Sequence record: OQ349392.1
Strand: one strand, 5' to 3'
From: Escherichia phage KIT06
Length of the DNA stretch: 64,000 nucleotides
In this document: piece after piece, positions 42,826-63,361 of the stretch
Numbering within the stretch: position 1 is the stretch's first letter
How the letters are laid out: each line of letters opens with the position of its first letter
Translations under genes and position numbers: made by a program
Notes under the pieces: generated by a model
What the model was told of the DNA's origin: nothing
The model's input: only the letters and a program-made list of their open reading frames with translations
Databases searched by the model: none

Positions 42826-43151
42826 TGACAGACACGCAACTTTTCGAATATCTTTATTTTTCGCCAAAAACTGTTAAAAATAAATTGGTGAATCATTTTG
42901 AAATTTTGGCAAATAACAACGTCTTGAGCGAATTTTATCCTAAGCAATACAAACTACAAAAAGGTGTATTCAAAGGATGCAGAGTTTTGTGCACTGCTCC
43001 TAATGTAAGATTAATGAATAAAATTCCATATTTTACCATGGAATTTATTGATGGGCCTTTTAAAGGACTAATCACGCAGAGTTTAATGGCATATGATTCT
43101 GAGCCATTTTTAATTAAAGAGCAATCTTGGATAAATTTATTTTCTAATTGA
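42822..43151 (+). CDS. hypothetical protein
   Basis: Track ORF 42771..43151; ATG at 42822 overlapping the previous stop (ATGATGA); [13 protein letters not shown]... Confidence 0.55.
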
Positions 43152-43159
43152 GAGGTTAT

Positions 43160-43522
43160 ATGAAAGCATATCAAATTCTTGAAGGCACGCATAAAGGTAC
43201 TATTTATTTTGAAGACGGTATTCAAGCACGAATTATTGTCTCTAAAACTTTTAAAGAGGACTCTTTTGTAGACCCAGAAATTTTCTATGGTTTGCATGCC
43301 CGTGAAATTGAAATTGAAACACAACCTACAGTTAAAATTGAAGGTGGTCAACACCTGAACGTTAACGTTCTGCGTCGTGAAACTCTGGAAGATGCAGTTA
43401 AGCATCCGGAAAAATATCCGCAGCTGACCATCCGTGTATCCGGTTATGCAGTTCGCTTTAACTCTCTGACTCCGGAACAGCAGCGCGACGTTATCGCTCG
43501 TACCTTTACTGAGAGTCTGTAA
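43160..43522 (+). CDS. autonomous glycyl-radical cofactor (GrcA/YfiD-like; T4 Y06I-type)
   Basis: ATG 43160 with SD gagagg; C-terminal about 60 aa ([60 protein letters not shown]) matches the glycyl-radical domain of E. coli GrcA/PflB as I recall it. Confidence 0.85.
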
Positions 43523-43743
43523 TGGCAAAGATAATTATTGAAGGTTCTGAAGATGTGTTAAATGCTTTCGCCGAATGGTTTAGTAATTCAGGCGAACAGC
43601 AATTTAATGAAGCGTGGAACATGGGTGATATTAGTGGAATTTATCCTACGACAGAAATTTCTGTTCAGGGATATGGCATTCATGAGCCTATTCGTTTAAT
43701 TGAATATGATTTGGGTACTGGTGAGGAAGTAAAATATGATTGA
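43522..43743 (+). CDS. hypothetical protein
   Basis: 73-aa ORF, ATGG overlap with the preceding stop. Confidence 0.5.
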   Translation: MAKIIIEGSEDVLNAFAEWFSNSGEQQFNEAWNMGDISGIYPTTEISVQGYGIHEPIRLIEYDLGTGEEVKYD

Positions 43744-44002
43744 AGATATTAAGGGTTATAAGCCACATACTGAAGAGAAAATCGGTAAAGTGAATGCTAT
43801 CAAAGATGCTGAAGTTCGTTTAGGACTTATCTTTGATGCTTTATATGATGAATTCTGGGAAGCACTAGATAATTGTGAAGACTGTGAATTCGCGAAGAAT
43901 TATGCTGAAAGCCTTGATCAGTTAACTATTGCTAAAACTAAACTCAAAGAAGCCAGTATGTGGGCTTGTCGTGCTGTGTTCCAACCAGAGGAAAAATATT
44001 AA
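43736..44002 (+). CDS. hypothetical small protein (candidate vs.4/Acb2-position gene)
   Basis: 88-aa ORF upstream of regB; assignment by position only. Confidence 0.5.
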
Positions 44003-44339: not shown

Positions 44340-44801
44340 ATGACTATCAACACAGAAGTTTTTATCCGTCGAAATAAGCTCCGTCGTCACTTTGAGTCGG
44401 AGTTTCGTCAAATTAACAATGAGATTCGTGAGGCATCAAAAGCAGCAGGGGTCTCATCGTTTCATCTAAAATATTCTCAGCATCTTCTTGATCGTGCAAT
44501 TCAACGGGAGATTGATGAGACATATGTTTTTGAATTATTCCATAAAATAAAAGACCATGTTTTAGAAGTTAATGAATTCCTGAATATGCCTCCACGCCCT
44601 GACATTGACGAGGATTTTATTGATGGGATTGAATATCGTCCTGGGCGTTTAGAAATCACAGATGGAAATCTTTGGCTTGGATTTACAGTTTGTAAACCTA
44701 ATGCGAAGTTCAAAGACCCGTCGCTTCAATGCAGGATGGCAATTATCAACAGTCGTCGTTTACCGGGAAAGGCTTCTAAGGCAGTAATTAAAACTCAATG
44801 A
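44340..44801 (+). CDS. regB: site-specific endoribonuclease RegB
   Basis: 153-aa ORF (T4 RegB is 153 aa); SD gaggag; early promoter immediately upstream. Confidence 0.8.
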   Translation: MTINTEVFIRRNKLRRHFESEFRQINNEIREASKAAGVSSFHLKYSQHLLDRAIQREIDETYVFELFHKIKDHVLEVNEFLNMPPRPDIDEDFIDGIEYRPGRLEITDGNLWLGFTVCKPNAKFKDPSLQCRMAIINSRRLPGKASKAVIKTQ

Positions 44802-61073: not shown

Positions 61074-61547
61074 ATGTTATTGACTGGCAAATTATACAAA
61101 GAAGAAAAACAAAAATTTTATGATGCACAAAACGGTAAATGCTTAATTTGCCAACGAGAACTAAATCCTGATGTTCAAGCTAATCACCTTGACCATGACC
61201 ATGAATTAAATGGACCAAAAGCAGGAAAGGTACGTGGGTTGCTATGTAATCTCTGTAATGCTGCAGAAGGTCAAATGAAGCATAAATTCAATCGTTCTGG
61301 CTTAAAGGGACAAGGTGTTGATTATCTTGAATGGCTAGAAAATTTACTTACTTATTTAAAATCCGATTACACCCAAAATAATATTCACCCTAACTTCGTT
61401 GGAGATAAATCAAAGGAATTTTCTCGTTTAGGAAAAGAGGAAATGATGGCTGAGATGCTTCAAAGAGGATTTGAATATAATGAATCTGACACTAAAACAC
61501 AATTAATAGCTTCATTTAAGAAGCAGCTTAGAAAGAGTTTAAAATGA
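61074..61547 (+). CDS. 49: endonuclease VII (Holliday junction resolvase)
   Basis: 157-aa ORF; CxxC...HLDHDH...CNLCN zinc and active-site motifs; size matches T4 gp49. Confidence 0.88.
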   Translation: MLLTGKLYKEEKQKFYDAQNGKCLICQRELNPDVQANHLDHDHELNGPKAGKVRGLLCNLCNAAEGQMKHKFNRSGLKGQGVDYLEWLENLLTYLKSDYTQNNIHPNFVGDKSKEFSRLGKEEMMAEMLQRGFEYNESDTKTQLIASFKKQLRKSLK

Positions 61548-63361
61548 CAATTGAAAAAGAAATTGAAGGATTGATTCATAAAACTAATAAAGACCTTTTA
61601 AACGAGAATGCTAATAAAGATTCTCGTGTTTTTCCAACTCAACGGGACCTTATGGCTGGTATTGTGTCTAAACACATTGCCAAAAATATGGTCCCGTCTT
61701 TTATTATGAAAGCGCATGAAAGCGGAATTATTCATTTCCATGATATTGATTATTCCCCTGCTCTTCCATTTACTAATTGCTGTTTAGTAGATTTAAAAGG
61801 AATGCTTGAGAACGGATTTAAGCTCGGTAATGCACAGATTGAAACTCCTAAATCAATCGGTGTTGCTACTGCAATTATGGCACAAATTACTGCACAGGTT
61901 GCTTCCCATCAATATGGTGGAACGACTTTTGCGAATGTAGATAAAGTACTTTCTCCTTATGTTAAACGCACCTATGCAAAACATATTGAGGACGCAGAAA
62001 AATGGCAAATCGCTGATGCGTTGAATTATGCCCAATCTAAAACAGAAAAAGATGTATACGATGCATTCCAAGCTTATGAATACGAAGTAAATACTCTCTT
62101 TAGTTCAAACGGACAAACGCCTTTTGTAACAATTACATTTGGTACGGGAACTGACTGGACTGAACGAATGATTCAGAAAGCAATTCTGAAAAATCGTATT
62201 AAAGGCCTTGGTCGCGACGGGATAACTCCTATTTTCCCTAAACTTGTTATGTTCGTTGAAGAAGGTGTTAATCTTTATAAAGACGATCCGAACTATGATA
62301 TTAAGCAGCTTGCTCTAGAATGTGCAAGTAAAAGAATGTATCCTGACATCATTTCGGCTAAGAACAATAAAGCTATCACCGGTTCATCTATTCCTGTTTC
62401 TCCAATGGGTTGTCGTAGTTTCTTGGGTGTATGGAAAGATTCGACTGGTAATGAAATTCTTGATGGACGTAATAATCTTGGTGTTGTAACACTGAATCTT
62501 CCTCGCATTGCACTAGATTCTTATATTGGAACACAGTTCAATGAACAGAAATTTGCCGAATTGTTCAATGAGAGAATGGATTTATGTTTTGAAGCATTGA
62601 TGTGTAGAATTAGTTCATTAAAAGGAGTTAAAGCTACTGTTGCTCCTATTCTTTACCAAGAAGGTGCATTCGGGGTTCGTCTTAAACCTGATGACGATAT
62701 AATTGAGTTATTTAAAAACGGTAGAAGTTCAGTGTCTTTGGGATACATTGGTATTCACGAATTGAATATTCTTGTCGGTCGTGATATTGGACAAGAAATT
62801 TTAACTAAAATGAATGCTCATCTTAAGCAGTGGACTGAAAGAACTGGTTTTGCTTTTAGTTTGTATTCGACACCTGCTGAAAACCTGTGCTATCGCTTCT
62901 GTAAACTTGATACCGAAAAATATGGAAGTGTAAAAGATGTTACCGATAAAGGCTGGTACACTAACAGTTTCCACGTTTCAGTAGAAGAAAATATCACTCC
63001 GTTTGAAAAGATTTCTCGTGAAGCACCATATCATTTCATTGCGACAGGTGGTCACATTTCTTATGTTGAACTTCCTGATATGAAAAATAACCTAAAAGGT
63101 CTTGAGGCTGTATGGGATTATGCTGCGCAACATTTAGATTATTTTGGCGTTAACATGCCAGTAGATAAATGTTTTACGTGTGGAAGTACCCATGAAATGA
63201 CTCCTACTGAAAACGGATTTGTTTGTTCTATTTGTGGAGAAACTGATCCTAAAAAGATGAACACAATAAGAAGAACATGCGGATATCTTGGAACTCCTAG
63301 CGTTGTTCCATGGAATTTAGGTAAAATGAAAGAAATGGTAAAACGAGTAAAACATGCATAG
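61544..63361 (+). CDS. nrdD: anaerobic ribonucleoside-triphosphate reductase NrdD, uninterrupted
   Basis: 605-aa continuous ORF; C-terminal Zn-ribbon (CFTCGSTHE...CSICGETD) and glycyl-radical motif RRTCGYLG; ATGA overlap with gene 49. Confidence 0.95.
   Translation: MTIEKEIEGLIHKTNKDLLNENANKDSRVFPTQRDLMAGIVSKHIAKNMVPSFIMKAHESGIIHFHDIDYSPALPFTNCCLVDLKGMLENGFKLGNAQIETPKSIGVATAIMAQITAQVASHQYGGTTFANVDKVLSPYVKRTYAKHIEDAEKWQIADALNYAQSKTEKDVYDAFQAYEYEVNTLFSSNGQTPFVTITFGTGTDWTERMIQKAILKNRIKGLGRDGITPIFPKLVMFVEEGVNLYKDDPNYDIKQLALECASKRMYPDIISAKNNKAITGSSIPVSPMGCRSFLGVWKDSTGNEILDGRNNLGVVTLNLPRIALDSYIGTQFNEQKFAELFNERMDLCFEALMCRISSLKGVKATVAPILYQEGAFGVRLKPDDDIIELFKNGRSSVSLGYIGIHELNILVGRDIGQEILTKMNAHLKQWTERTGFAFSLYSTPAENLCYRFCKLDTEKYGSVKDVTDKGWYTNSFHVSVEENITPFEKISREAPYHFIATGGHISYVELPDMKNNLKGLEAVWDYAAQHLDYFGVNMPVDKCFTCGSTHEMTPTENGFVCSICGETDPKKMNTIRRTCGYLGTPSVVPWNLGKMKEMVKRVKHA

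Follow-up and report, generated by a model that had tools for sequence, protein, structure and literature searches.

The radical domain of the T4-type gene vs.6 in Escherichia phage KIT06 was very likely overwritten by Escherichia coli grcA

How does a phage gene come to carry a segment that matches its host base for base, and does such a match reflect recent capture of host DNA or strong constraint on the protein? This question is raised by a gene at positions 43160-43522 of a 64,000-nucleotide stretch of Escherichia phage KIT06 (OQ349392.1), which we analysed as a whole and call the window. The gene encodes a small glycyl-radical protein, and an earlier note made from the letters alone had proposed that its C-terminal 60 residues or so are identical to the radical domain of E. 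coli GrcA/PflB, through one or the other of these two histories. We consider it highly likely that the gene is a T4-type vs.6, encoding a spare-part cofactor for pyruvate formate-lyase (PFL), and that its 3' 175 nucleotides have been overwritten by E. coli grcA. The features on which this reading is built are the following.

43160-43522, plus strand: coding sequence of vs.6 (Y06I), assigned from its open reading frame, its identity to Vs.6 of T4T, the T4 gene order, the Pfam domain Gly_radical and the match to PDB 6OWR.
43160-43337, plus strand: phage-type 5' half, encoding the N-terminal domain; about 45% nucleotide identity to E. coli grcA, GC content at third codon positions (GC3) of 0.18, delimited by the site test described below.
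43338-43512, plus strand: host-derived conversion tract, encoding residues 60-117 of the radical domain; 175/175 nucleotides identical to E. coli grcA.
43442-43444, plus strand: GGT codon of Gly95, the predicted radical site, in the motif RVSGYAV as aligned to GrcA and PflB.
43513-43522, plus strand: phage-specific 3' tail, with 2 synonymous differences from E. coli.

The open reading frame comprises 120 codons on the plus strand, from the ATG at 43160 to the TAA at 43520-43522. Its product has the same length as T4T Vs.6 and is identical to it at 119/120 residues; the sole difference, T54 in the window for P54 in T4, lies outside the radical domain. The neighbouring genes are, in order, ipIII, vs.8, vs.7, vs.6, vs.5, vs.4, vs.3, regB, vs.1, vs and tk, and this order from ipIII to tk is that of T4 and other Tequatroviruses. 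In annotated relatives the gene is labelled 'autonomous glycyl radical cofactor' and likened to the one in phage T4. From the near-identity, the gene order and these annotations, we conclude that the window gene is the orthologue of the T4 gene encoding Y06I; near-identity to T4 Vs.6 and the order kept from ipIII to regB place it in the T4 vs.6 orthologue group. Both the gene and its biochemical role are already known, and belong to textbook-level knowledge of T4.

At 120 residues, Vs.6 is a stand-alone small glycyl-radical domain protein without a catalytic barrel, as in the family of the autonomous cofactor GrcA/YfiD (TIGR04365, IPR011140). Pfam recognizes only Gly_radical in it, over residues 60-101, with a score of 67.2 bits for a cut-off of 22.2. 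The motif RVSGYAV, which the earlier note had made a condition of its proposal, is present near the C-terminus, with RVSGY at residues 92-96, and alignment makes Gly95 the equivalent of Gly102 in GrcA and Gly734 in PflB. Among solved structures the best match is E. coli GrcA (6OWR, E = 4.6e-42), from residue 22 of Vs.6 to its end, followed by PflB (E = 4.8e-26) over residues 58-120. Homology to GrcA thus extends outside the radical domain, the phmmer and BLASTP alignments both starting at residue 22. The proposed identity of the last 60 residues holds for GrcA (60/60) and fails for PflB (48/60).

At the DNA level the match is confined to one part of the gene. In pairwise alignment with E. coli grcA, the segment 43338-43522 is identical at 183/185 nucleotides and 43338-43512 at all 175, so that the nucleotide comparison with grcA and pflB suggested in the earlier note reveals no substantial divergence from grcA within that tract. 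On the 5' side of 43338, identity falls sharply to about 45%. The host homology starts at GAAGGTGG on the 5' side and similarity is gone past the stop codon; since it ends there, the 3' crossover must fall within the gene. The host-identical run stops about 10 nucleotides ahead of the stop codon, and the phage-specific tail is thereby preserved. The match to grcA is at 95-99% identity in all 5426 complete E. coli genomes, and at 98.9% in each of the 15 matches listed. A perfect 175-nucleotide match to the host, in a phage genome with 36% GC, lies far beyond chance. T4 and T2 are among the 643 phage records in which the tract occurs with at least 95% identity, and it is therefore no assembly artefact.

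Composition and phylogenetically informative sites change at the same point. GC is 0.33 before the 43337/43338 junction and 0.49 after it, with GC3 values of 0.18 and 0.43, the second of which is close to the GC3 of 0.42 of the E. coli grcA tract; the compositional step coincides with the breakpoint. The latter was located by a three-way site test between the window, E. coli and a Karamvirus homologue taken as the unconverted phage type. In the 5' half, 64 of 72 informative sites are Karamvirus-like and 8 are E. coli-like, while in the 3' half 42 of 43 are E. coli-like and 1 is Karamvirus-like, which puts the breakpoint between 43336 and 43345 (Fisher p = 4e-22). Both the window gene and its counterpart in Jiaodavirus, described below, are thus mosaics with a supported breakpoint and with one segment nearest to phage sequences and the other nearest to a host. 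The N-terminal sequence is common to Tequatro-, Mosig-, Jiaoda-, Karam- and Slopekvirus and to an Erwinia jumbo phage, and is distant from bacterial sequence. The 5' half thus represents an old, AT-rich phage grcA lineage, inherited vertically within phages, in which the radical segment was replaced later in some genera.

To identify the donor, we compared the tract with a panel of 82 bacterial grcA genes, namely those of K. pneumoniae, K. aerogenes and 80 further species of Enterobacterales and Pasteurellaceae. The nearest gene to the window is that of E. coli, with 171/171 identical positions over the 171 nucleotides from 43340, followed by Escherichia sp. (169) and Citrobacter (158). E. coli is the unique nearest neighbour in 87% of bootstraps; in the remainder the Escherichia sp. 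locus, only 2 sites away from E. coli, ties with it or comes out nearest. Identity to the E. coli tract is 98.9% for Escherichia sp., 92.8% for Citrobacter amalonaticus, 88% for Serratia, about 87% for Klebsiella sp. and 83.9% for Salmonella. Where bacterial grcA genes encode an identical or almost identical protein, 7-16% of their bases still differ from E. coli; set against 0/175 differences in the window, this synonymous divergence excludes protein constraint alone. RB16 and Slopekvirus illustrate the outcome of constraint in the absence of recent transfer, with 60/60 identical residues at only about 84-85% nucleotide identity. The alternative posed at the outset is thus decided in favour of recent capture by the identity at synonymous sites, and against constraint by itself by the differences seen in Citrobacter, Klebsiella and Salmonella. 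We also considered pflB as the donor and rejected it, since it matches at 144/183 nucleotides compared with 181/183 for grcA. Only the 3' half of vs.6 is therefore host-derived, with grcA rather than pflB as its source. E. coli grcA is compositionally uniform and its divergence tracks the species tree, the mosaic gene being that of the phage; the direction of transfer is therefore from host to phage.

The two differences that separate the last 185 nucleotides from E. coli, GAA to GAG at 43513 and AGC to AGT at 43516, both lie in the 3' tail, next to the following gene.

43522-43743, plus strand: vs.5, an open reading frame of 73 residues, which marks the end of host homology.
43150-43155, plus strand: GAGAGG, the likely Shine-Dalgarno sequence of vs.6, read from the sequence, 4 nucleotides 5' of the ATG at 43160.

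The GAG AGT pair creates the sequence GAGAG (43511-43515), 6 nucleotides 5' of the vs.5 ATG, and the stop codon of vs.6 overlaps the start codon of vs.5 as TAATG. Slopekvirus has the GAG AGT tail as well, and Jiaoda-, Slopek-, Karam- and T5-like phages all retain the TAATG overlap with the next gene. Translation of vs.5 is probably coupled to that of vs.6, and the tail probably carries the vs.5 ribosome-binding site, which selection would have kept. The GAGAG site may in turn explain where the conversion tract ends. At the other end of the gene, the GAGAGG sequence overlaps the TGA stop codon (43149-43151) of the upstream vs.7. Scans for promoters and terminators around vs.6 gave counts that were not above those in shuffled sequence, and were not used as evidence.

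A second mosaic is found in Klebsiella Jiaodaviruses, whose 3' tract matches K. pneumoniae grcA at 96-97% of 173 nucleotides; 80 phage records are at least 95% identical to this K. pneumoniae tract. Over the first 157 nucleotides, phages KPV15 and vB_VIPKPNUMC01 match K. pneumoniae grcA at 156 and 154 positions respectively, and E. coli grcA at 137-139. The Jiaodavirus breakpoint is well supported (Fisher p = 7e-14), GC3 rises across it from 0.27 to 0.61 (0.67 in K. pneumoniae), and the nearest-neighbour bootstrap to K. pneumoniae is 0.985-1.0. The tract stops about 15 nucleotides earlier than that of the T4 type. Each of the two tracts matches a different present host allele, and a single ancestral capture followed by parallel divergence is thereby excluded, leaving at least two independent events. 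The Jiaodavirus conversion from K. pneumoniae grcA is thus independent of the one from E. coli.

The Jiaodavirus loci analysed are L084 (701-876) and L121, and that of K. pneumoniae grcA is L176 (400-783). The latter comes from CP125156.1, a K. pneumoniae record of 5.37 Mb with ung and grcA that served here as a source of host sequence; it is mislabelled as 'plasmid unnamed2' and is one of several PLSDB records that are whole or partial chromosomes. For one of the Jiaodavirus phages, PSE-D1, the recorded host is Salmonella.

Within the E. coli-type phages, the tract is also carried by Mosigvirus (phiE142, Av-05 and p000v; loci L100, L101 and L178, the last at 1201-1563), with 0-4 differences in 175 nucleotides. 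In the 5' half of vs.6, 17-20 of 178 nucleotides separate Mosigvirus from the window, and the Mosigvirus flanks are 67-79% identical to those of the window. Among 10 copies from Tequatro- and Mosigvirus, nucleotide diversity is 0.013 in the tract, 0.055 in the 5' half of vs.6 and 0.13 in the neighbouring genes; singletons make up 9 of the 10 segregating sites in the tract and 6 of the 26 in the 5' half. This pattern suggests that the E. coli tract postdates the split between the two genera; if so, either E. coli supplied it on more than one occasion or it moved from phage to phage. Taking the two host-specific tracts together, we incline to the view that the radical domain of phage grcA has repeatedly been overwritten by the grcA of the current host, at least twice, and possibly three or more times should Tequatro- and Mosigvirus have acquired the E. 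coli tract separately.

The pattern has clear limits. A host-identical tract was not found in Slopek-, Karam- and Krischvirus, in RB16-type Pseudotevenvirus or in T5-like phages, nor in Aeromonas, Providencia and Erwinia jumbo phages or metagenomic phage contigs, all of which are at most 86% identical to any gene of the panel. With so many phage groups lacking such a tract, we rejected a universal rule of host tracking; conversion is episodic rather than continuous. In RB16 (L109) and Slopekvirus (L085 and L112) the C-terminal 60 residues are identical to the GrcA domain of the E. coli or Klebsiella type, at DNA identities of only about 84-85% to any of the 82 grcA genes, and these domains may be older conversions that have drifted, or may derive from unsampled donors. 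No phage in the collection was more than 95% identical to the Salmonella grcA tract. Three phage records are 90-95% identical to it and could be a further host-like case.

Several other records deserve mention. In the Tequatrovirus vB_EcoM_Nami (MZ502380; L093, 521-883) the tract shows 13 changes, among them N to H and, two residues before RVSGY, I to S; these could reflect relaxed selection or sequencing error. The uncultured metagenomic contigs mentioned above are possibly from Pasteurellaceae phages. An IMG/VR contig (L124, IMGVR_UViG_2706794630_000006) was considered as a third host-like case and rejected: it carries a full-length grcA of bacterial type, 91% identical in nucleotides to that of Yersinia artesiana, and is probably bacterial DNA or a prophage-adjacent region. 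Loci L165-L175 of the viral collection were also discarded as phage grcA genes, as they are pflB genes, probably of bacterial or prophage-adjacent origin.

What would a phage gain from this protein? During T4 infection, host transcription is shut off and the host DNA is degraded. The cell would then be unable to induce its own grcA, and the phage would need its own copy. PMC8683613, citing Wagner et al. 2001, names YfiD and T4 Y06I as the only two spare parts that have been validated for PFL. According to PMC8683613, both proteins receive their radical from the PFL-activating enzyme and restore activity by forming a complex with O2-cleaved PFL; the statement in the earlier note that T4 Y06I has been described as able to repair oxygen-cleaved PFL is borne out by this account, again by way of Wagner et al. 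2001. As it differs from Y06I at 1/120 residues, the window protein is assigned the same mechanism by sequence. In this scheme, the host radical SAM enzyme PflA would install the radical on Gly95, and the activated 14-kDa protein would dock onto host PFL that O2 has cleaved at Gly734, taking the place of the lost radical domain and restoring the conversion of pyruvate to acetyl-CoA and formate. The phage copy would thereby sustain the fermentative ATP supply during microaerobic infection. The 3' replacement itself would have occurred by homeologous gene conversion, between similar but non-identical sequences; less certainly, it may have been tolerated or favoured because the radical domain has two host partners to fit, PflA and the core of PflB.

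A number of observations count against parts of this picture. The NCBIfam equivalog model for GrcA, TIGR04365, gives Vs.6 154.6 bits, below its cut-off of 170 (E. coli GrcA scores 233.9), a shortfall that is due to the divergence of the N-terminal half; Vs.6 is thus a phage-type relative of GrcA and, by the TIGR04365 rule, no strict equivalog. The between-genera contrast in synonymous differences between the two gene halves is significant in some pairs only (p = 0.001-0.22). The E. coli phages Krischvirus, RB16 and T5-like have grcA homologues without a host-identical tract, and Tequatroviruses isolated on Yersinia, Citrobacter and Salmonella retain the E. coli tract. Concerning function, the searchable literature yielded no in vivo phenotype of vs.6. 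The E. coli- and Klebsiella-type domains differ at only 2/60 residues, and any adaptive value of the conversion is putative.

A plausible, if less favoured, explanation is that the tract is a neutral by-product of phage recombination with degraded host DNA and brings no better fit to PflA or PflB. It would account for the small difference between the two host types, for the persistence of the E. coli tract in Tequatroviruses that grow on other hosts, and for the several E. coli phages that manage with diverged domains. Against neutrality stand the fixation of the tract in all 643 matching records, from two genera, the absence of any amino-acid change in it among the 16 Tequatro- and Mosigvirus copies examined (Nami being an exception), and the fixation in a second genus of an equivalent tract from its own host. 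Moreover, the ancestral phage-type domain, as represented by Karamvirus, differs from that of the host at about 9 residues.

The window encodes a second glycyl-radical protein, which raises the question of whether PFL is the partner of Vs.6 at all.

61544-63361, plus strand: nrdD, encoding a class III (anaerobic) ribonucleotide reductase; Pfam NRDD 570.7 bits and Gly_radical 88.1 bits.

The earlier note had placed the reductase at 61544, and it is indeed there, with 605 residues. The presence of vs.6 and nrdD in one genome can reasonably be read as a putative adaptation to anaerobic infection in the gut, as that note proposed. The gene directly upstream is gene 49 (endonuclease VII), at 61074-61547. 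In T4 proper, nrdD contains a group I intron with I-TevII. The nrdD of the window is a single uninterrupted open reading frame without intron, and the window therefore comes from an intron-less relative of T4. It is improbable that Vs.6 serves as a spare part for the phage NrdD or for another glycyl-radical enzyme instead of PFL. NrdD too is destroyed by O2 at its radical glycine, and grcA-like genes lie near its genes elsewhere: in Aeromonas phage ZPAH1 (L090, 526-912) directly after nrdD and nrdG and before thioredoxin and glutaredoxin genes, and in Erwinia jumbo phage pEa_SNUABM_50 (L092, 523-885) with a single gene's distance to nrdG. Such proximity hints that the genes belong to a common anaerobic module in those phages, and PMC8683613 offers the speculation that repair by GrcA-like proteins may extend to other glycyl-radical enzymes. 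In the window, however, vs.6 lies 18 kb from nrdD, and BLASTP found no significant similarity between Vs.6 and NrdD (E = 5.9), so that by this comparison Vs.6 does not have an NrdD-like radical domain. The motif is RRTCGYLG in NrdD and RVSGYAV in Vs.6; the radical domain of Vs.6 is copied from grcA and shares 48/60 residues with PflB, and according to PMC8683613 the rescue of PFL by T4 Y06I has been shown biochemically.

Less probable still is that Vs.6 acts as a decoy, tying up the PFL activase or competing with host GrcA and so lowering PFL activity. A host-identical radical domain would indeed compete for PflA, and the N-terminal domain is unlike that of the host; but the radical motif is intact, no loss-of-function feature was found in Vs.6, and Y06I restores the activity of cleaved PFL in the published reconstitution, as PMC8683613 relates it. 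We give even less credence to one ancient capture in the ancestor of T-even phages, with the tract then diverging alongside the hosts. The 5' boundary of the host-like region is identical in Tequatro-, Mosig- and Jiaodavirus, but this common boundary is simply the start of phage-host homology, and the 3' boundaries are unlike between the two phage groups. Parallel divergence predicts substitutions of both lineages, yet the two tracts match present alleles at 175/175 and 156/157 positions, while the present E. coli and K. pneumoniae alleles share 138/157 positions and differ at 19/157. Least credible of all is strong purifying selection on the glycyl-radical domain alone, without recent transfer: the domain is highly conserved, 13/82 bacterial species sharing the exact E. 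coli 60 residues and RB16 and Slopekvirus keeping a 60/60 host-type domain at only about 84-85% nucleotide identity, but protein selection does not fix the synonymous sites that are unchanged in the window, and identity and GC3 both step sharply at 43337/43338.

In the literature searched, we found no description of the mosaic origin of vs.6 or of the Klebsiella-derived case, though an earlier mention may exist. The added value of a partial replacement of this kind is evolutionary, as a strictly lytic T-even phage would here have exchanged a portion of a metabolic gene for DNA from the host chromosome. If our reading is correct, vs.6 is a clean record, left in nature, of strictly lytic phages with modified DNA having recombined with the chromosome of their host, and is kept matched to host PflA and PflB. 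It would offer a simple experimental system for the frequency of recombination between lytic phages and their hosts, and for the need of spare parts to match their host partners. It also calls for caution in inferring hosts from such tracts, because the Tequatroviruses from Yersinia, Citrobacter and Salmonella carry the E. coli allele. Two further genes just 3' of vs.6 belong to the same early-gene cluster: vs.4 (43736-44002) encodes an Acb2-type anti-CBASS protein (PF24729, 71.4 bits), and regB lies at 44340-44801 (PF10715).

The system can finally be compared with those already known. T4 is the closest, the window flanks being 92-95% identical to T4T, and the window phage is not T4 itself. 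E. coli GrcA (YfiD, 6OWR) resembles Vs.6 in size, in a radical domain identical at 60/60 residues and 175/175 nucleotides, and in an N-terminus that is weakly homologous from residue 22. In contrast to GrcA, the N-terminal 59 residues of Vs.6 are strongly diverged (about 45% nucleotide identity), the protein is 7 residues shorter, and its gene belongs to the phage early-gene cluster and is not under host control. The C-terminal radical domain of PflB (PDB 1H16 and others) has the same fold element and motif, with 48/60 identical residues, and is the part that the spare part replaces; Vs.6 lacks the catalytic core of PflB, and pflB was not the DNA donor. The nearest evolutionary parallel is found in cyanophages. 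Recombination between the host and phage copies of psbA and psbD is reported in Zeidner 2005 and in Sullivan 2006 (PMC1484495). As with vs.6, these are host-derived metabolic genes in T4-like phages, whose GC content is patchy and which have traded segments with the copy in the host. Unlike in psbA and psbD, the vs.6 tract is perfectly host-identical; its boundaries can be placed to the base, its donor and direction are clear, and it is carried by T4 and by close relatives of T4. The vs.6 tract corresponds to one functional domain of a spare-part protein, and separate phage genera appear to have drawn it from separate host donors.

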